Under the pieces are notes generated by a model. The model saw nothing but the letters and a program-made list of their open reading frames with translations. It did not search any database and was not told the origin of the DNA. From a virus (lineage: Duplodnaviria; Heunggongvirae; Uroviricota; Caudoviricetes): 40,230 nt of DNA. Below, one piece after another: positions 2,850-29,412 of this stretch. The stretch covers positions 1-40,230 of IMG/VR virus record IMGVR_UViG_2563366875_000002. One strand, given 5' to 3'. Positions within the stretch are counted from its first letter, which is position 1. Each line of letters opens with the position of its first letter. The translations under genes and the position numbers were made by a program.

Positions 2850-3154
2850 TATTTCACCTCTTGCTGTGACATTGTTGAGAAATGGATACCAGCTCGTTGC
2901 TGCCAGACGATCCAACCGAGAGTCATATCCCATGCCATGTATTCGTTATCGCCGTTTTTTGCTCTCCGACGATCTACTAAGTCACCAAAACGCTTTTCCA
3001 TGAATAATTCATAAGCTTCGCGTTCATCTGGTTCTACTTCCAGAGATAGGAGTGCGATTTCATAAGCACGGCGCTCAATATCGTCTCGCACGTCAAGGCT
3101 GCTGATACGCTCTTTAATTTCTTTAATCAGTTCTTTGTCGGTAAAAGTGGTCAT
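2849..3154 (-). CDS. hypothetical phage early protein
   Basis: 101 aa ORF in the leftward operon, stop/start coupled to neighbours; no recognised motif. Confidence 0.5.
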   Translation of the reverse strand: MTTFTDKELIKEIKERISSLDVRDDIERRAYEIALLSLEVEPDEREAYELFMEKRFGDLVDRRRAKNGDNEYMAWDMTLGWIVWQQRAGIHFSTMSQQEVK

Positions 3155-3516
3155 TATGCTCCAGCCTCCGGTGCTTTTGGCATTACTGCCCAGTGAGTGA
3201 TATTGACGTTTTCAAGGTCCCCGACCTGAAATGTCCACTGCCATTCTCCGGTTTCTTTTTGTCCCCAGGTGTACCAGAGAGAACGCCAGCCAATTAGCCA
3301 GCCTTCTCCGTTAGCATCGAATAACAAAACACTTTCATTTGCTGGTGGCAGTTCAGTTGACACTGGTATTACTTTGTTTTCCTGTGCTGCACATTTAGCT
3401 TCAAGCGCATCGAATTTACGCACCAGGTATTCAGCATCCGTTTCATTCACTTTCAGATCTCGCGGTACACATCTCCCACGAAGAAACCCTTCCATTTCGA
3501 AAACATTCATGCGCAT
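3154..3516 (-). CDS. hypothetical phage early protein
   Basis: 120 aa ORF in the leftward operon, overlaps upstream gene end; no recognised catalytic motif. Confidence 0.5.
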   Translation of the reverse strand: MRMNVFEMEGFLRGRCVPRDLKVNETDAEYLVRKFDALEAKCAAQENKVIPVSTELPPANESVLLFDANGEGWLIGWRSLWYTWGQKETGEWQWTFQVGDLENVNITHWAVMPKAPEAGA

Positions 3517-6199: not shown

Positions 6200-6400
6200 A
6201 TGAAAGCGTATTGGGACTCTTTAACCAAAGAACAGCAGGGCGAGTTGGCCGGAAAAGTTGGCTCAACACCTGGCTACTTACGGCTGGTTTTCAATGGCTA
6301 TAAAAAAGCCAGTTTTGTGCTGGCTAAAAAACTTGAGCAATGCACGTCAGGTGCAATTACGAAATCTGACTTAAGACCGGATATCTATCCGAAAGATTAG
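6200..6400 (+). CDS. Cro-like small DNA-binding regulator
   Basis: 66 aa from internal ATG 6200 with RBS GGAGG; HTH-like GKVGSTPGYLRLVFNG; divergent from repressor. Confidence 0.7.
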   Translation: MKAYWDSLTKEQQGELAGKVGSTPGYLRLVFNGYKKASFVLAKKLEQCTSGAITKSDLRPDIYPKD

Positions 6401-6431
6401 CAGAACACTTTCAATTTTTAACCACAGAACG

Positions 6432-6995
6432 ATGAGGCTAACCGTGGGTAAGCATCACTGGAAAATAGAAAAACAGCCTGAGTGGTACGTGAAAGCTGTC
6501 AGAAAAACTATCGCGGCGTTGCCGGGTGGTTACGCTGAAGCGGCTGACTGGCTCGATGTAACAGAAAACGCTTTATTCAACCGCCTTCGTGCAGATGGCG
6601 ATCAGATTTTCCCGCTGGGATGGGCAATGGTTTTACAGCGTGCTGGTGGCACTCACTTCATTGCTGATGCTGTGGCGCAGTCTGCAAATGGCGTCTTTGT
6701 GTCTCTTCCTGACGTCGAGGATGTGGACAACGCCGATATCAACCAACGCCTGCTGGAAGTCATTGAACAGATCGGCAGTTATTCAAAACAGATTCGTTCA
6801 GCAATTGAAGACGGTGTAGTGGAACCGCATGAGAAGACAGCAATTAACGATGAGCTGTACCTCTCAATTTCGAAGCTGCAGGAGCATGCAGCACTGGTCT
6901 ACAAAATCTTTTGCGTTTCAGAAAGTAGTGACGCCCGCGAGTGTGCAGCTCCGGGCGCCGTGGCGTGTCGTGACTGTGGAGAAACTAACGCATGA
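6432..6995 (+). CDS. putative cII-position regulatory protein (hypothetical)
   Basis: 187 aa ORF directly after cro-like gene in the rightward early operon; assignment by position only. Confidence 0.5.
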
Positions 6996-7330
6996 ACAGT
7001 TTAACAACACACTACCGTCGCTCGCAACTGATTGCGCTTCCTGTACCGGGTGGAAAAGCGAAGGTGGAGTATTGCTATGCAGTAAATGTACTAGGTGACA
7101 GGGAAATTGTAACCCACAGCTTTGCAGAGTGGGCTGTGGGTGATTTCAACCGGCAGAAGGAGACAGTCCTTTGCGACAAGTTAACCGCTGGTTCAAAGAT
7201 CACTACGGAGTGCCCGTCAGAGTCATTCGTTGGGAGCCGGAAACACAACGGGTTATCTACCTCCGTGAAGGCTATGAGCATGAGTGCTTCAGCCCGCTCG
7301 AACAGTTTCGTTGTAAATTCAGGGAAATAG
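6992..7330 (+). CDS. hypothetical protein; C-terminal third looks out of frame (possible frameshift)
   Basis: N-terminal part protein-like; after about 7180 the product becomes Ser-rich low complexity while the -1 frame (7144..7350) reads as a natural protein. Confidence 0.35.
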
Positions 7331-7339
7331 AGGTCGGTC

Positions 7340-8281
7340 ATGAGCACTAAATTAACCGGCTATGTATGGGATGGTTGCGCTGCGTCAGGCATGAAATTAT
7401 CCAGCGTGGCAATTATGGCCCGCCTGGCTGATTTCAGTAATGACGAAGGTGTGTGCTGGCCATCAATTGAAACCATTGCCCGTCAGATTGGCGCGGGGAT
7501 GAGTACCGTCAGAACGGCTATCGCACGGCTGGAAGCAGAAGGCTGGTTAACGCGTAAGGCGCGTCGCCAGGGTAACCGCAATGCGTCGAATGTTTATCAG
7601 CTTAACGTTGCGAAGCTTCAGGCAGCGGCATTTTCTCAACTGTCAGATTCTGACCCGTCAAAATCTGACGCATCAAAATCTGACCCGTCAAAATTTGATG
7701 CGTCGAAATCTGGCAAAAAAGCGGGTTTTCACCCGTCAGAATCTGGCGGGGATCCGTCAGTAAAATCAAAACATGATCCGTCAGATAAAAAAACTTCTCG
7801 TCCGGACGCTTCGCAACCGGACACGCAGACGGCTGAACAGGAGTTTTTAACTCGCCATCCTGATGCGGTTGTATTCAGCCCTAAAAAGCGCCAGTGGGGA
7901 ACGCAGGATGATTTGACCTGCGCACAGTGGCTCTGGAAAAAAATCATCGCCCTGTACGAGCAGGCCGCCGAATGTGACGGCGAGGTGGTTCGTCCCAAAG
8001 AACCGAACTGGACAGCCTGGGCAAACGAAATTCGCCTGATGTGTGTGCAGGATGGTCGTACTCACAAACAAATCTGCGAGATGTACAGCCGCGTCAGCCG
8101 CGATCCGTTCTGGTGCCGTAACGTGCTCAGCCCGTCGAAGCTGCGGGAAAAATGGGATGAGCTTTCCCTGCGCTTATCGCCGTCCGTCAGCACGTACACA
8201 GAAAAACGCGAAGACCCGTACTTCAAAGCCAGTTACGACAACGTGGACTACAGCCAGATCCCGGCAGGATTCAGGGGGTGA
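7340..8281 (+). CDS. phage replication initiation protein (O-like; N-terminal HTH, internal repeat linker)
   Basis: 313 aa; N-terminal HTH-like region (CWPSIETIARQIGAGMSTVRTAIARLEAEGWL); repeated DPSKSDASKSDPSK linker encoded by DNA iterons; position between cII-like gene and RusA/Q. Confidence 0.75.
   Translation: MSTKLTGYVWDGCAASGMKLSSVAIMARLADFSNDEGVCWPSIETIARQIGAGMSTVRTAIARLEAEGWLTRKARRQGNRNASNVYQLNVAKLQAAAFSQLSDSDPSKSDASKSDPSKFDASKSGKKAGFHPSESGGDPSVKSKHDPSDKKTSRPDASQPDTQTAEQEFLTRHPDAVVFSPKKRQWGTQDDLTCAQWLWKKIIALYEQAAECDGEVVRPKEPNWTAWANEIRLMCVQDGRTHKQICEMYSRVSRDPFWCRNVLSPSKLREKWDELSLRLSPSVSTYTEKREDPYFKASYDNVDYSQIPAGFRG
7641..7795. repeat. iteron-like direct repeats (putative origin of replication inside the replication gene) followed by an A-rich tract
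   Basis: at least 4 tandem copies of about 18 bp (CCGTCAAAATCTGAC variants) plus degenerate copies, then ATAAAAAAACTTC. Confidence 0.55.
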
Positions 8282-8283
8282 TC

Positions 8284-8772
8284 ATGAGTCTTTTGAATGA
8301 AGTTCAGAAATACATTGAAGCCCATCCGGGGTGTACTTCCGGAGACATTGCGGATGCTTTTGCAGGTTACTCACGGCAGCGCGTTCTGCAGTCAGCAAGC
8401 AAGTTACGTCAGAGTGGGCGTGTGGCTCACCGTTGTGAAGGGGATACACGCAGACATTTCCCGCGCCTGACTGAGAGAGCGCAGGAGGCGGAACCGCAAC
8501 CAGTTCGTGAAACCAGACCTGTGCGCAATTTCTATGTCAGCACTAACGACCCGCGGGAGATTTTGTGCCTGACCCGCCAGGCTGAAGAACTGGAGTCCAG
8601 GGGCTTATACCGTCGTGCTGCAACGGTGTGGATGGCGGCATTCCGTGAAAGCCACTCCCAGCCAGAACGAAACAATTTTCTGGCGCGTCGTGAGCAGTGT
8701 TTACGGAAAAGCAGCAAGCGCGCTGTATCGAGTGATGAGTGGTATCTGTCAGGGAATTACGTGGGGGCGTAA
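8284..8772 (+). CDS. putative PerC-family-like transcriptional regulator
   Basis: ATG 8284 after GGGGG; C-terminal region AEELESRGLYRRAATVWMAAF resembles the PerC/Pch signature as recalled from memory; family call tentative. Confidence 0.45.
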   Translation: MSLLNEVQKYIEAHPGCTSGDIADAFAGYSRQRVLQSASKLRQSGRVAHRCEGDTRRHFPRLTERAQEAEPQPVRETRPVRNFYVSTNDPREILCLTRQAEELESRGLYRRAATVWMAAFRESHSQPERNNFLARREQCLRKSSKRAVSSDEWYLSGNYVGA

Positions 8773-9098
8773 TGACGACGTTAACTCAATGCCAGCAGCA
8801 GGTGCTGGATATGCTGATTTCTTACCAGAAAGAACGTGGCTTCCCGCCAACCAATCAGGAGGTGGCAACCATGCTGGGATATCGTTCGGTGAATGCAGCG
8901 GTGGAGCATCTTCGCGCACTGGAGAAAAAAGGCGTCATCACGATAAAGCGTGGCGTGGCCCGGGGGATAACGCTTCATACCGCGGTGAAGGACGACGACA
9001 GCGAGGCGGTCGGGATTATCCGCTCACTGCTTGCCGGTGAGGAAAACGCCAGGCTGCGTGCAGCCCACTGGTTACATGAGAGGGGCCTGAAAGTATGA
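8772..9098 (+). CDS. LexA N-terminal DNA-binding-domain homologue (no peptidase domain)
   Basis: 108 aa; LTQCQQQVLDMLISYQKERGFPPTNQEVATMLGYRSVNAAVEHLRALEKKGVITIKRGVARGITL aligns by eye with the LexA winged-HTH domain; no S24 domain follows. Confidence 0.7.
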   Translation: MTTLTQCQQQVLDMLISYQKERGFPPTNQEVATMLGYRSVNAAVEHLRALEKKGVITIKRGVARGITLHTAVKDDDSEAVGIIRSLLAGEENARLRAAHWLHERGLKV

Positions 9099-9484
9099 AG
9101 TTGATCCTTCCTTTCCCGCCCAGCGTGAACACGTACTGGCGACACCCCAACAAAGGGGCATTTGCTGGTAAGAGCCTGATAAGCGCGGCGGGGCGAAAAT
9201 TTCAGAGCGCGGCGTGTGCAGCAATAGTTGAGCAGTTACGTCGTCTGCCAAAACCAACGTCGGCACCTGCTTCAGTGGAGATCGTGTTGTTTCCTCCGGA
9301 TAACCGGATCCGCGATCTGGACAACTATAACAAGGCGCTGTTTGACGCCCTGACCCACGCGGGTGTGTGGGAAGACGACAGTCAGGTGAAAAGAATGCTG
9401 GTGGAGTGGGGACCGGTTATCCCGGAAGGGAAGGTCGAGATCACTATCAGTAAGTACGAGAAAACGGCGGGTGCAGCCGCCTGA
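9095..9484 (+). CDS. rusA: Holliday junction resolvase RusA
   Basis: 129 aa; motifs LPFPPSVNTYWR and RDLDNYNKALFDALTHAGVWEDDSQV typical of RusA. Confidence 0.88.
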   Translation: MKLILPFPPSVNTYWRHPNKGAFAGKSLISAAGRKFQSAACAAIVEQLRRLPKPTSAPASVEIVLFPPDNRIRDLDNYNKALFDALTHAGVWEDDSQVKRMLVEWGPVIPEGKVEITISKYEKTAGAAA

Positions 9485-9503
9485 TTAAGAGGAGAAACGA
9501 AGT

Positions 9504-10301
9504 ATGAATAATCTGATGGTTATTGATGGTATTGAAGTTCGTCGTGATGCTTATGGGCGTTACAGCCTGAACGATCTGCACAGGGCTGCTGGTTCTCTGG
9601 ATAAGCATAAGCCTGCATTCTGGCTCCGCAATGAGCAAACTGAGCGTTTAATAAGCGAGTTGCAGATTTGCAACTCGGTCAATATAGAGCCAGTTAACGT
9701 TATTCGTGGCGGAAATAACCAGGGGACGTATGTCTGCAAAGAACTGGTGTATGCCTATGCAATGTGGATCAGCCCGTCATTCCATCTGAAGGTGATCCGT
9801 ACTTTCGACATGGTAACCAGCGCACCGGAAAAATTATCCGGACAGGCTGCTGACAAGATGCAGGCTGGTGTGATTCTGCTGGACTTTATGCGTCGGGAGT
9901 TAAACCTGTCTAACTCATCTGTGCTTGGTGCCTGTCAGAAACTCCAGGAGGCTGTTGGCTTACCGAATCTGGCACCGCGCTATGCCATTGATGCTCCTGC
10001 TGATGCACACGATGGCTCAAGTCGCCCGACACTGTCACTGAGTGCACTGCTGAAACAGTATGGTATACGCCTGACGGCTAATCAGGCATATCACCAGATG
10101 GTGAAGCTGGGGATCGTCGAGCAGCGCGAACGATACAGCCGTACCGCGATTAACAACATCAAAAAATTCTGGTCGCTGACAGCGAAAGGCTGTATGTTCG
10201 GCAAGAACATCACCAGTCCCGCAAATCCGCGCGAGACGCAGCCGCATTTCTTCGAATCCCGATTCCCTGAGCTGTTAAAGCTGCTCGATACCGTTCATTG
10301 A
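9504..10301 (+). CDS. KilA-N domain protein (antirepressor-like)
   Basis: 265 aa; N-terminal KilA-N-like DNA-binding region (IDGIEVRRDAYGRYSLNDLHRAAG...). Confidence 0.75.
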   Translation: MNNLMVIDGIEVRRDAYGRYSLNDLHRAAGSLDKHKPAFWLRNEQTERLISELQICNSVNIEPVNVIRGGNNQGTYVCKELVYAYAMWISPSFHLKVIRTFDMVTSAPEKLSGQAADKMQAGVILLDFMRRELNLSNSSVLGACQKLQEAVGLPNLAPRYAIDAPADAHDGSSRPTLSLSALLKQYGIRLTANQAYHQMVKLGIVEQRERYSRTAINNIKKFWSLTAKGCMFGKNITSPANPRETQPHFFESRFPELLKLLDTVH

Positions 10302-10302
10302 G

Positions 10303-11298
10303 GTGACCGTGAGAGCACTACTGACCCCTGAAATTGCCCCGCGTATGGGGATCGTATTGTTCAGGCCAGGTTCAGAGCTGATGCCCCTGTTTATGCAGGG
10401 GCGTGTCCTGCTGGAGCCTGAGCCGGAGCGTTATTCATCTTTCGCCAGTGGTGCCGTTCCGGCGGCATCACAACCGCTGGCGGATGATCCTGCCGTTCGG
10501 GCCGTGTTCCGCAATGAGGCAGTGATCCGTCGTGCTGGTGGCGTGGAATGTCTTGAAAGCTGGTTACTTCGTGAAAAAGGCTGCCAGTGGCCTCATTCCA
10601 ACTGGCACAGCGAGAACATGACCACAATGCGACACGCGCCTGGCGCAATCCGTCTGTGCTGGCACTGCGATAACCAACTGCGCGATCAGTTCACGGAACG
10701 GCTGGAATCAATGGCAACGGATAACTGTGCCCGCTGGGTGTTGTCTGTTGTGCGTCGGGATCTCGGTTTTGATGATAGTCACGTTGTGACAATGCCGGAA
10801 CTGTGCTGGTGGCTGGTTCGTAATGATCTGGCGGATGCCTTACCGGAAAGCGCAGCCCGTAAGGCACTGAGATTACCGAAGCCTGTTGTGCCGTCTGTCA
10901 CCCGGGAAAGTGACCTTGTGCCTTCGGTTCCAGCCACCAGCATCATGCAGGATAAAGCGAAAAAGGTGCTGGCGCTGAAAGTGGAGCCGGAGTCGCCGGA
11001 GTCTTTTATGTTACGCCCCAAACGTCGCCGCTGGGTTAATGAAAAGTACACGCGCTGGGTTAAGACACAGCCGTGTGCATGTTGTGGAAAGCCTGCTGAT
11101 GATCCCCACCACCTGATAGGCCACGGTCAGGGGGGAATGAGTACAAAAGCGCATGACCTCTTTGTGTTGCCTTTGTGCAGAAAGCATCACGACGAGCTGC
11201 ATGCGGATACCGTGGCATTTGAAGAGAAGTATGGCTCCCAGCTGGAGCTGATATTTCGTTTTATCGACCGTGTGTTGGCAATTGGTGTGCTAGCCTGA
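10303..11298 (+). CDS. DUF968-like phage protein with C-terminal HNH-like zinc motif
   Basis: GTG start; C-terminal CACCGKPADDPHHLIGHGQGG...CRKHHDELH. Confidence 0.7.
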   Translation: MTVRALLTPEIAPRMGIVLFRPGSELMPLFMQGRVLLEPEPERYSSFASGAVPAASQPLADDPAVRAVFRNEAVIRRAGGVECLESWLLREKGCQWPHSNWHSENMTTMRHAPGAIRLCWHCDNQLRDQFTERLESMATDNCARWVLSVVRRDLGFDDSHVVTMPELCWWLVRNDLADALPESAARKALRLPKPVVPSVTRESDLVPSVPATSIMQDKAKKVLALKVEPESPESFMLRPKRRRWVNEKYTRWVKTQPCACCGKPADDPHHLIGHGQGGMSTKAHDLFVLPLCRKHHDELHADTVAFEEKYGSQLELIFRFIDRVLAIGVLA

Positions 11299-11312: not shown

Positions 11313-11681
11313 TTGATGCGTGATATTCAGATGGTTCTGGAGCGTTGGGGGGCATGGGCGGCGAGTGATAGTTCAGGCGTTGATTATTCACCTATAGCCG
11401 CTGGGTTTAAGGGACTTCTTCCCTATACAAGCAAGAAACGCTTGGCTTGTTCGGATAGTGATGCCTTAATTATTGAAGGTTGTCTTGCTCGTCTAAAGCA
11501 AAAAAGGCCGGACGAACATTCGCTTCTTGTTGCCCATTACCTATACGGTATCTCTAAAAGAAAGCTCGCCAAGGCTCGTAAAAAAGATGAGAAATTGATA
11601 CGTATAGAAATACAGCTAGCCGAAGGATTTATTGATGGCTGCCTTTCCATGCTAGATCTAACATTAGATTTGGACGTTTAA
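11313..11681 (+). CDS. late-gene antitermination protein Q
   Basis: 122 aa; MRDIQMVLERWGAWAA...IAAGFKGL...CLARLK matches Q-family N-terminus from memory; position immediately before the late region. Confidence 0.8.
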   Translation: MMRDIQMVLERWGAWAASDSSGVDYSPIAAGFKGLLPYTSKKRLACSDSDALIIEGCLARLKQKRPDEHSLLVAHYLYGISKRKLAKARKKDEKLIRIEIQLAEGFIDGCLSMLDLTLDLDV

Positions 11682-11682
11682 T

Positions 11683-11707
11683 AATACGCCCCTGCATGGG
11701 GCGTATT
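11683..11707. terminator. bidirectional stem-loop between convergent Q and KAP NTPase genes
   Basis: perfect 10 bp inverted repeat AATACGCCCC-TGCAT-GGGGCGTATT with AT-rich flanks. Confidence 0.5.
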
Positions 11708-11709
11708 AT

Positions 11710-13041
11710 TTACTGGATGAATGACATTTGATTAATATATTTTATCAATAACTCTCTGGGTGTAGTACTCCAAAAATTTATGTGTTCATAATCAGTATAA
11801 ACATTTGTGAATTTTTTAAGTTCTTCATCACTTTTAGGGGCAAATCGCTCATTAAGAGTAATACTGTCTTTAATTATTCCGAAGAATACAATGGATATTT
11901 CAGGGATTTGCGATCTTCTCTCATAAGAATAAGGTATTTCTTTTATGTTAAGCAGGTCTGCTAAATAAGATATAGATTCAGCGGTAATTTCTTGTTTTAG
12001 TTTTTCCTTGTTACCAAAGCAATGTATGAAGGCAGCTACGACAAAGATCATATTTATTAAAGGATCACTGCTTTTGTTCTCATCGTCGTTTAACAGTTGA
12101 AAAATGTTAAGATTGCGTGAAAATGTTTGTGTTTCACGTAATGATAAGTTGGTTCGTTGAATTAAATCACGGATAAAGTAACCTGATAATCTATTGATTT
12201 TATTCAATAACCTTGTTTTTTCTACAAGGTAATCCCAATATATAACAGAGGCTTTACATACGTTGTGACCATTTATTAAACATGTATCTGGAAGCGTGAT
12301 GGTATATTTTATAAACTTGTCAAGATACTTTTGTGAGTTAATGCTATAACCATAAATATGATTTATAGATGCTTTTAATTGTTCTGTGTTTGTAACTAAA
12401 ATAAAAAAGACATTATTGATGTCAAAAATGTGTTTTATTGTTTCAATGACATTTGTTGAAAAACTCGGCTTACATCGGTCTAATTCATCAATTATAATTA
12501 CGATTTTTTGATTTTTTGATATGCTTTCGATGCAGGATTTAAGTGAATTTATGTTTTTCTCTGAGTCCATATGGTCTTCAAGCAAATTTTCAATAGTCCC
12601 ATCTATTGCTGCATTGCTTGCTTTCTTCATCGCATCTTGGAATTCTTCGGCAACTTCACTAGCCTCCTGTCGTAAAAACCAACCTGCACCAGCTTTTAGT
12701 ACCGTTTTTAAACCAAAGCGAATTGCAGGAAGAGATCTCTTAATGAAGTGTTGTTTTTCTTCCTCAGGCAAAATGCTGGCAATTGCAGAGGTTATGAGAA
12801 GTAATGGAGATTCTGCATGATCCCCTTTAAAGGCATCAATATAAACAACTTTAGATTCAGTTTCTTGCTCAATAATGAGATTTTTCAGTTTGATACTAAA
12901 TTCTGTTTTCCCTGTTCCCCATGCGCCGTCTATTACCAGTGGTGAAATGTCTGCCTCTGGTTTTAGCAACTTGATGATATTTTCAGCGATGTTTCTTCGT
13001 TGGAACTCGTCACGTTCAGTGAAAGATAGTGTATCTAACAT
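11710..13041 (-). CDS. KAP-family P-loop NTPase
   Basis: 443 aa; Walker A DGAWGTGKT (res 38-46), Walker B-like VIIIDELDRC; strongly AT-rich compared with flanking phage genes. Confidence 0.85.
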   Translation of the reverse strand: MLDTLSFTERDEFQRRNIAENIIKLLKPEADISPLVIDGAWGTGKTEFSIKLKNLIIEQETESKVVYIDAFKGDHAESPLLLITSAIASILPEEEKQHFIKRSLPAIRFGLKTVLKAGAGWFLRQEASEVAEEFQDAMKKASNAAIDGTIENLLEDHMDSEKNINSLKSCIESISKNQKIVIIIDELDRCKPSFSTNVIETIKHIFDINNVFFILVTNTEQLKASINHIYGYSINSQKYLDKFIKYTITLPDTCLINGHNVCKASVIYWDYLVEKTRLLNKINRLSGYFIRDLIQRTNLSLRETQTFSRNLNIFQLLNDDENKSSDPLINMIFVVAAFIHCFGNKEKLKQEITAESISYLADLLNIKEIPYSYERRSQIPEISIVFFGIIKDSITLNERFAPKSDEELKKFTNVYTDYEHINFWSTTPRELLIKYINQMSFIQ

Positions 13042-13311
13042 AATATAAACCTATTAACTCCTACAGTAAAAAACGAATAATACGACTTTGGGATTAAAAA
13101 TCATTAACGCGGTCCGCAAAAATTCTTGTAATCTGTTAAGAGTGGTTACTTCGCCACACAGCTTAAACCCGCCGTCGAGCGGTTTTTTTGTACCTGTAAA
13201 CCAAGAGCAGTACGGTAAACACGCTGGTGGTCGTGAATACTGACTTTTTATCTTGCTGGCTTTTTAGACAAGAGTTATTGGTATGTCATGTTAACCAGAA
13301 GGGAAAAAGAC

Positions 13312-23503: not shown

Positions 23504-23984
23504 TTTTCAGCAGCCCGCGGAGATGCGCTTTAACCGCGCCCGTGTCCGGCGGGCGTTTGTCACGATTGGTCAGCGTCATATGCGTGATGCCCGTCGGCTG
23601 GTGATGTGCCGTGCGCGGTCGGCACCGGGTGAAAACCCCGGTTATCAGACCGGACGCCTGGCTCGTTCGATTGGTTACATGGTACCCAGAGCCAGTAAAC
23701 ATCGCCCTGGTTTTATGGCACGTATAGCCCCTAACCAGCGTAATGGAGAGGGAAACCGCCGTATCACCGGTGATTTTTATCCGGCTTTTTTGTTCTATGG
23801 CGTGAGGCGAGGGGCAAAGCGTCGTCGCAGCCATCATCGTGGTGCATCCGGTGGCAGCGGCTGGCGACTGGCTCCACGTAATAACTTCATGGTGGAAACG
23901 CTTGAAAAGAACCGCAGCTGGACACGCTATTTTCTGGCGCGGGAATTGCGTAAATCACTGAAGCCGGAGCGACGACACAGATGA
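23478..23984 (+). CDS. HK97 gp10-like head-tail joining protein
   Basis: internal start; conserved position between head closure and tail genes. Confidence 0.65.
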   Translation: MTTSFLHVDFQQPAEMRFNRARVRRAFVTIGQRHMRDARRLVMCRARSAPGENPGYQTGRLARSIGYMVPRASKHRPGFMARIAPNQRNGEGNRRITGDFYPAFLFYGVRRGAKRRRSHHRGASGGSGWRLAPRNNFMVETLEKNRSWTRYFLARELRKSLKPERRHR

Positions 23985-24541
23985 AACTGACGCCTGTTAT
24001 TGCTGCACTGTGTGCCCGCTGTCCGTATTTTGAAAACCGGGTTGCAGGCGCGGCACAGTTCAAAAATCTGCCGGAGGTCGGAAAGCTGAGACTCCCGGCG
24101 GCGTATGTGGTACCGGGGGATGATTCTCCGGGAGAAAACAAAAGCCAGACCGACTACTGGCAGGAGCTGAAAGAGGGCTTCTCCGTGGTTGTCATACTGA
24201 GTAACGGGCGTGATGAGCGCGGTCAGTTTGCTTCGTATGATGTGGTGGACGATGTCCGGCAGATGCTCTTTAAGGCCCTGCTGGGCTGGAACCCGGAAGC
24301 GTGCGGTAACCCGATTACCTATGACGGCGGCACGCTGCTGGATCTGAATCGTCATGAGCTGATTTATCAGTTCGATTTTTCGGTCATCAGCGAGCTGACT
24401 GAAGACGATACCCGCCAGCAGGATGATCTGAACAGTCTGGATGAACTGCAAACGCTGGCGATTGATGTTGATTATCTCGATCCCGGTAACGGGCCTGACG
24501 GCGATATCGAACATCACACCGAAATAACCCTTCCTTCCTGA
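23981..24541 (+). CDS. tail completion / terminator-like protein
   Basis: 186 aa, coupled to neighbours, precedes sheath gene. Confidence 0.6.
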   Translation: MKLTPVIAALCARCPYFENRVAGAAQFKNLPEVGKLRLPAAYVVPGDDSPGENKSQTDYWQELKEGFSVVVILSNGRDERGQFASYDVVDDVRQMLFKALLGWNPEACGNPITYDGGTLLDLNRHELIYQFDFSVISELTEDDTRQQDDLNSLDELQTLAIDVDYLDPGNGPDGDIEHHTEITLPS

Positions 24542-28799: not shown

Positions 28800-28898
28800 T
28801 GTACAAAATGATTAATGTGTTTTTGTCTGGCATAATTTGGGTTTTCAGCTTTAAGTAGTTAATATAATCATTCCTTACAAATGATTGAAGGGATGATT

Positions 28899-29393
28899 AT
28901 GCGTATCTTTGTTTTTTTTATATCTGCACTTTTATCTTTTAACTTGGCTGCGGAAGAGTGTAAGTTCAGCTTTAATGAGTCAGAATTAATCTCTTCTATA
29001 GGTATTGCACCAGTTAAGCAAGAGATAATAAAGGATGAAGGAATAACTAAGCGGCAATATGAATTCAGAAGAGAATTATCTTCTGAAGAAATGCTTAGTG
29101 ATGACGCTGATGAAAAATATGAGCCGCAGTTTTATATATCTGTTTATAATCCATCATGCCCACAAAAGGTTATTGTTTGGTTTTTCAAAGACAATAAAAA
29201 CACAATGGATTTAAGTAATGAGGTCCTTGCTGGTAGAGCGTTCAAGTATTTAACTGGTGTTAATGAAAGTATTTTTGAAAATAAAATGAAAAAGTTTTTA
29301 AAGGTACAGTCATTTGAATCTTTTGATGAAAGGACAGATTCTAAATTTATAAAGAGTGGTGATATTTATTCCATTGATGTTCAACTCAGATAG
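28899..29393 (+). CDS. secreted hypothetical protein (moron) with Sec-type signal peptide
   Basis: AT-rich ORF; start taken at ATG 28899 after GAAGGGA (ORF track starts 28881); signal peptide MRIFVFFISALLSFNLAAEE; TATAAT at 28863-28868. Confidence 0.6.
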   Translation: MRIFVFFISALLSFNLAAEECKFSFNESELISSIGIAPVKQEIIKDEGITKRQYEFRRELSSEEMLSDDADEKYEPQFYISVYNPSCPQKVIVWFFKDNKNTMDLSNEVLAGRAFKYLTGVNESIFENKMKKFLKVQSFESFDERTDSKFIKSGDIYSIDVQLR

Positions 29394-29412
29394 TAATTAA
29401 AAATATTAGGTT

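Follow-up and report, generated by a model that had tools for sequence, protein, structure and literature searches.

Gene and family assignment

The stretch of viral DNA described here, hereafter the window, comprises positions 1 to 40,230 of IMG/VR record IMGVR_UViG_2563366875_000002 (40,230 nt) and is an SfV/SfIV-like lambdoid prophage located at tRNA-Thr beside proA. An intact, yfdN-like open reading frame (ORF) of 162 codons plus stop lies on the plus strand at 8284 to 8772, from an ATG at 8284 to a TAA stop at 8770-8772, and encodes an 18 kDa protein that carries a PerC domain. An in-frame GTG at 8278 yields the 164-aa form annotated by PGAP/RefSeq. The ATG at 8284 is the better start, because the sequence AGGGGG (8273-8278, plus strand), read as the Shine-Dalgarno sequence of yfdN, ends five bases 5' of it. 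This putative ribosome-binding site falls within the final codons (GFRG*) of the upstream replication initiator gene, whose TGA stop occupies 8279-8281.

The original prediction had tentatively called this ORF a PerC-family regulator of the nin-like region, on the basis of the peptide ELESRGLYRRAATVWMAAF (residues 102-120, nt 8587-8643), and had proposed a profile search as a check. That search returned a significant match. Pfam PerC (PF06069) aligned with residues 98-152 (nt 8575-8739) over profile positions 5-59 of 90, with an E-value of 7.1e-10 and a score of 39.5 bits against the whole protein, above the gathering score of 22.6; the PerC domain by itself scored 41.8 bits. All 40 of the relatives collected matched the same profile, and the ORF also matched PHROG 1324 ('transcriptional activator') with an E-value of 5e-76. 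BLASTP against PerC of enteropathogenic E. coli (EPEC) E2348/69, encoded on plasmid pMAR2, gave 32% identity over 56 ungapped residues (E 2e-7). The signature LExxG(L/F)(Y/W)RRAAxxW followed by (K/R)RxxC is shared by YfdN and authentic PerC; in an alignment that included PerC of E2348/69, the L, R and A of the motif were invariant and the downstream C nearly so. As judged from these sequence comparisons, the resemblance of YfdN to PerC is far beyond chance. With the replication initiator (7340-8281) on one side and the Q antiterminator on the other, the gene does have the nin-like location proposed for it.

A full-length, single-domain member of the PerC family would measure approximately 90-105 aa and span the 90-position profile. 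YfdN has 162 aa, an additional winged helix and a different C-terminus, and the C-terminal third of the PerC profile is unmatched. Because only profile positions 5-59 match and an N-terminal winged helix is added, YfdN belongs to the PerC family at the level of the domain only and represents a distinct two-domain subtype. Like other members of the PerC family it is carried on mobile elements, here a prophage and a number of sequenced phages.

The assignment as yfdN was already known and the gene is not new. The surrounding 2.1 kb recur with 100% identity in E. coli LZSFT34 and STEC1575, and in this identical DNA the RefSeq/PGAP annotation reads 'yfdN: PerC family transcriptional regulator' (WP_001542656.1). 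The original prediction is thus correct but ordinary, since it re-derives an existing annotation. The cryptic prophage CPS-53 (KpLE1) of E. coli carries the same gene; a yfdM-flanked copy located near 2.47 Mb on the chromosome shows about 96% identity at the DNA level. Among sequenced phages, the SfIV copy has 99.4% protein identity, that of mEp460 96% and orf40 of SfV 94%; SfII also carries the same gene, the Stx2a, Stx2c and Stx2k converting phages of Shiga toxin-producing E. coli (STEC) carry copies 92-95% identical in protein sequence, and the homologue in Salmonella phage ST64B is 65% identical. At a coverage of at least 80%, 2547 of 5426 complete E. coli genomes (47%) carry yfdN, in up to four copies each. 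Relatives 61-81% identical are found in Salmonella, Shigella, Citrobacter and Hafnia, and another Citrobacter carries one of 44% identity. Cluster names read 'PerC family transcriptional regulator' only, with no Pch name among them. In the literature search yfdN was found mentioned only in passing, with no functional study of YfdN or its phage equivalents.

Domain organization

A search of 1.84 billion representative proteins recovered full-length homologues down to 25% identity. Twenty-six full-length homologues with 23-71% identity to the query were aligned, and an AlphaFold2 model was built on this alignment with a mean pLDDT of 84 (84-85 across models). The model predicts a fixed two-domain design, in which a variable acidic linker joins the winged helix at the N-terminus to a basic PerC/ANR-like domain that is followed by a conserved unstructured tail. 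A sequence search of PDB chains gave no match, and Foldseek searches of PDB with the full model returned generic winged-helix matches only.

The N-terminal winged helix-turn-helix domain (residues 1-60; 8284-8463, plus strand) was recognized with AlphaFold2 and Foldseek. The model places helices at residues 3-13, 19-25 and 31-44 and a beta-hairpin at 47-60, with pLDDT of 91-96. In PDB, Foldseek matched the winged helices of MarR, ArsR/SmtB, DsrD and SSV1 F-93 with target TM-scores of 0.4-0.8 and an rmsd of about 2 Å, and the Pfam families MarR_2, Penicillinase_R and HTH_24 were each matched by a few of the relatives. The segment formed by H3 and the wing has a net charge of +7 in this protein, the family mean being +4. 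The conserved N-terminal block of the 26 homologues reads MSL..V..FI..NPG.T..EIA.AF... and includes L41.

The linker that follows (residues 61-89; 8464-8550, plus strand) is predicted to be disordered, with pLDDT of 53-77 and no secondary structure. Across the 26 members it varies from 9 to 29 aa with a mean charge of -1.35; it is positive in three of them and carries -1 in this protein. The PerC/ANR-like domain (residues 90-143; 8551-8712, plus strand) is modeled by AlphaFold2 as three helices at 90-105, 109-122 and 126-143 and resembles MIT/TPR-like three-helix units. Its net charge is +5, equal to the family mean, and L103, R111, A112, R136 and C139 are invariant in the PerC block of the 26 homologues.

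The protein ends in the conserved motif W-x-L-[AS]-G-x-[YF]-x-G (residues 153-161, WYLSGNYVG; 8740-8766, plus strand), in which G157 and G161 are at least 90% conserved among the 26 homologues. Because this tail is conserved yet predicted to be unstructured (pLDDT 44-53), it is a candidate short linear binding motif. The motif is missing from PerC, PchE and other classical short members of the family; three short relatives of 90-92 aa (P0185, P0186 and P0192) retain a similar W-x-LAG ending.

The two-domain layout is preserved in homologues down to 23-30% identity. Rare fusions of 234 aa (P0021, P0027, P0029 and P0032), in which YfdN is joined to the HTH_36 N-terminal domain of the initiator, probably arose by deletion as prophages decayed. 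Matches confined to the N-terminal domain (the unusually long P0181 and P0137, and others) were considered as new architectures and rejected, as they represent frameshifted or chimeric gene calls.

Relationship to ANR, PerC and Pch proteins

The PerC region also matched the NCBIfam model NF033650 (ANR_neg_reg), which describes the AraC negative regulators (ANR) such as Aar and Rnr, with 22.3 bits over the full-length protein, 25 bits for the domain and an E-value of 1e-5; these scores are below the cutoff of 32. At E <= 0.01 the model was matched by 27 of 40 PerC-family members, the best with an E-value of 6e-12. This breadth of matching suggests, at the level of sequence, that PerC/Pch and ANR (Aar) proteins form a single superfamily. 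ANR proteins are predicted to consist of three helices (PMC4983702), as are the PerC-domain models of YfdN, and the PerC and ANR families have in common not only sequence features but also the type of target on which they act. ANR proteins are smaller than 10 kDa, accompany activators of the AraC/XylS family, and act as anti-activators and H-NS binders, whereas YfdN has 162 aa and a winged helix.

Aar, an ANR protein, binds AggR, a regulator of the AraC type, and H-NS directly (PMC4983702, PMC5570504). YfdN might by analogy act through protein contact alone, sequestering an AraC-family activator or H-NS, with DNA binding irrelevant. The matches of so many family members to the ANR model and the likeness of the PerC-domain fold to peptide- and protein-binding MIT/TPR units are in keeping with such a role. 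The YfdN score itself stays under the ANR cutoff, however, and no AraC-family gene was found among the annotated genes from integrase to terminase or in nine further ORFs scanned, the tail-gene stretch at 20-35 kb being unscanned. Conservation of the winged helix down to 23% identity further argues that this domain is needed. A role by protein contact alone is therefore judged very unlikely.

PerC of EPEC, encoded in the perABC operon of the pEAF/pMAR2 plasmid, activates LEE1 (PMC5293775, PMC4764244). It is a protein of 89 aa whose one domain is N-terminal, the last approximately 30 aa forming a different tail; the winged helix and the W-x-LAG-x-Y-x-G end, both present in YfdN, are absent, and yfdN is located in a phage early operon rather than on a plasmid. 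PchE (ECs_1588, 90 aa) and PchD (ECs_1388, 89 aa) of O157:H7 Sakai are likewise short single-domain proteins with an N-terminal PerC domain and a different tail. The position of pchE is comparable to that of yfdN, immediately after the replication genes (primase, hypothetical, SSB) of the satellite-like Sp7. The gene order of the pchE element, observed at two loci (L031, Sakai Sp7, pchE at 23773-24045; L004, pchE at 3001-3273), is integrase, primase, hypothetical, SSB, pchE, hypothetical, capsid, protease, portal, terminase.

The function implied by the original prediction is that YfdN activates ler/LEE1 and other virulence loci in the manner of PerC and PchA-C. It has the PerC domain and the signature motif in common with PerC, the Stx2a, Stx2c and Stx2k converting phages of STEC carry close copies, and in a study of Pch effects with ler reporters yfdN, described as 'the K12 unique PerC homologue', was deleted from MG1655 so as to provide a clean background (PMC5931665). 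Of the two tested relatives compared, however, PchE is more similar to YfdN (40% identity over 52 aa, E 2e-10) than is PerC. Over-expression of PchE leads to repression of csgD and curli and to increased expression of flagellar genes, while ler rises less than 2-fold (PMC6265319, PMC7369912, PMC5931665); PchD gives no rise of ler (PMC5931665). The partial profile match, the missing C-terminal third and the added winged helix, already described, also weigh against activation of the PerC type, as does the location of yfdN inside a repressor-controlled early operon. The gene is moreover widespread in complete E. coli genomes and has relatives in Salmonella, Citrobacter and Hafnia; most of these bacteria are not known to carry the LEE. 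Since the effects of PchE and PchD on ler are small or nil, the architecture differs and the gene is widespread, activation of ler seems unlikely as the main role of YfdN, and direct equivalence with PerC and PchA-C as a virulence activator, for which the analysis gave no support, is regarded as highly improbable.

Operon structure and genomic context

The order of genes in this part of the prophage is integrase, cI-like repressor, cro, CII-like protein, DUF4222, replication initiator, yfdN, a protein with the LexA DNA-binding domain only, RusA, KilA-N, DUF968 and Q. The coding sequence of Q annotated by PGAP corresponds to positions 11313-11693 of the window; the ORF list ends it at 11681. 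Consensus scans of the plus strand found no promoter-like site from cro to 9485 and no terminator-like site from 6311 to 10727.

Directly upstream of yfdN lies the replication initiator (7340-8281, plus strand), which has an HTH_36 N-terminal domain (Pfam E 4e-11) and matches the O-like PHROG 391 (E 1.6e-135). Approximately six direct iteron-like repeats of 15 bp occur at 7628-7750, with the TRF consensus TCTGACCCGTCAAAA, and are followed by related copies of the CCGTCAGA type at 7751-7789. The run of repeats (7628-7789) falls within the low-complexity Ser/Asp/Lys/Pro linker of the initiator and, to judge from its repeat structure, is probably the phage origin with its iterons.

The relatives show either a 4-nt overlap between the start of yfdN and the upstream stop or a gap of 2-5 nt after that stop, and overlap or abutment of start and stop was observed in the window and in 11 related loci. 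Such an arrangement implies that translation of yfdN is probably coupled to that of the upstream initiator. Downstream, the yfdN stop overlaps the start of the next gene (TAATG), which occupies 8772-9098 on the plus strand and encodes a 108-aa protein with the LexA DNA-binding domain (Pfam E 3e-19) and no S24 peptidase domain; many relatives have this gene in their nin-like region as well. Known yfdN loci have dam or yfdM as the downstream neighbor instead, and otherwise nothing notable differs.

Gene contexts were collected locus by locus; a profile scan of genome contigs with a tighter alignment gave eight loci. Wherever the context is intact, in the window as in the fetched loci, the gene stands directly after replication genes. 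Its upstream neighbors are HTH_36/Phg_2220_C initiators and two other initiator types (window, L006, SfV). At L028 and L029 the upstream initiators are annotated with a 'conserved phage C-terminal domain' and fall into the same C-terminal sequence group as HTH_36/Phg_2220_C. A decayed prophage (L023) retains a yfdN homologue alone, just before Q.

Relationship to the replication genes and to lambda Ren

The constant position of yfdN directly behind replication genes, with coupled translation, would fit a replication accessory protein that, as an analogue of lambda P, recruits the host helicase together with the initiator. From the integrase to the terminase of the prophage, PGAP annotates neither a helicase nor a helicase loader. 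Similarity of three loci to the window breaks, at the DNA level, at 7822, just past the iterons, so that the C-terminal half of the initiator and yfdN diverge together, and every initiator upstream of yfdN ends in an IPxGFRG tail.

A segment-by-segment comparison of identities in 15 initiator/YfdN pairs shows independent assortment of the two proteins. In SfV, YfdN segments are 93-95% identical, while the three segments of the initiator show 17-27% and the initiator is unrelated save for its last 24 residues. The converse is observed at L016, where the initiator is 97-100% identical and the folded domains of YfdN only 63-74%, with 19% in the linker; at L006 the C-terminal domain of the initiator is 89% identical and YfdN approximately 50%. 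At L024 a homologue of 39% identity follows a Phage_lambda_P gene and hence co-exists with a real loader. No ATPase and no known DnaB-binding domain was detected in YfdN by domain searches, and the GFRG codons double as the ribosome-binding site of yfdN, which could account for the conservation of the initiator tail. Given the independent assortment in the 15 pairs and the L024 locus, the reading as helicase loader or initiator partner was rejected: as far as these comparisons indicate, YfdN neither loads the helicase nor works specifically with the initiator, and a function as a lambda P analogue has only the slightest probability. Because its assortment is independent, it follows a lambda-P-like gene at L024 and it stands solitary at L023, yfdN is a mosaic unit of its own in the slot held in lambda by ren.

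The initiator tail deserves separate mention. Initiators with three unrelated types of C-terminal domain share the ...IPxGFRG end (window, 8257-8281; L002, L009, L010, L012, L014, L025, L026, L028, L029), and the otherwise unrelated SfV initiator has its last 24 residues exactly in common. A recombination joint, a peptide motif held in common or the yfdN ribosome-binding site could each explain why IPxGFRG is conserved.

Lambda Ren (96 aa) occupies the same slot after the replication genes and shows weak profile similarity to the first 60-65 residues of YfdN. If the N-terminal domain of YfdN were homologous to Ren, the protein might protect the phage from Rex-like exclusion by a resident prophage, or exclude others. 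The position as first gene after O-P would agree with this, and PHROG 142 ('Ren-like exclusion protein') matched residues 3-68 with an E-value of 0.0023. An hhalign comparison of the family profile with lambda Ren aligned 60 columns from both N-termini (E 4e-4), and both Ren and the N-terminal domain of YfdN are predicted winged helices. The hhalign probability for Ren is only 35%, however, which marks a weak similarity, and Foldseek searches of BFVD returned generic winged-helix matches, with none of the top 50 labeled Ren and many of them unnamed. The PerC domain is not present in Ren. PADLOC gave no meaningful match to a defense system. To our knowledge the mechanism of lambda Ren is not established, so the comparison predicts little. 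Homology of Ren and YfdN, resting on this distant profile similarity, is tentative and not secure, and a Ren-type exclusion function for YfdN is considered unlikely.

AT-rich regions of the prophage

Directly after Q the prophage contains an AT-rich island at 11400-13200 (GC 0.30-0.39). The ORF at 11710-13041 on the minus strand encodes a KAP-family P-loop NTPase (Pfam E 9e-71) and looks like a moron, possibly a defense gene; in the identical prophage of LZSFT34 a shorter 'hypothetical protein' is annotated at this position. Further AT-rich islands at 28800-29400 and 37200-39000 (GC 0.31-0.38) contain the ORFs 28881-29393 and 37547-38644, which have no Pfam match. The island at 37200-39000 is located near the tail-fiber end, where SfV-like phages carry genes for O-antigen modification.

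Proposed role and significance

The best overall explanation of the combined data, to which we assign roughly an even chance, is that yfdN encodes a DNA-bound modulator, produced from the early operon, of H-NS-type silencing or of partner regulators. Pch is known to loosen H-NS/StpA/Hha silencing complexes at promoters that include LEE1 (PMC4764244). According to the proposed mechanism, YfdN would be produced only after inactivation of the cI-like repressor, when the rightward early transcript is made and yfdN is translated from it in a coupled manner. Its winged helix would bring the protein to DNA, where the PerC/ANR-like domain may perturb H-NS-type nucleoprotein complexes or a partner regulator, as its relatives do, and a host protein may dock onto the conserved disordered tail. 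Such a modulator would likely act primarily on AT-rich DNA, either that of the phage itself or other DNA acquired horizontally; the LEE is not likely to be the primary target.

A more far-reaching proposal, which we consider speculative and rather doubtful, is that the YfdN type is the ancestral, phage-housekeeping form of the PerC/ANR proteins. It would be a winged-helix-tethered anti-silencer or anti-exclusion factor, produced from the early operons of many temperate phages of enterobacteria, that opens H-NS-coated phage DNA after induction, for example the AT-rich block beside Q (11.4-13.2 kb). The short PerC, Pch and ANR proteins would then represent domain-only offshoots recruited by pathogens, and the W-x-L-[AS]-G-x-Y-x-G tail would be the docking motif for a host partner.

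The label 'PerC family' attached to yfdN should be read with caution, as it does not mean 'virulence activator'. The two-domain subtype is present in about half of the complete E. coli genomes as well as in Stx-converting and serotype-converting phages, and it has a winged helix, predicted to bind DNA, that is not present in PerC, PchD or PchE. If YfdN is a DNA-tethered anti-silencer, induction of the prophage would, in very many strains, be tied to relief of the repression of genes acquired horizontally, and the PerC, Pch and ANR regulators would have a phage origin.
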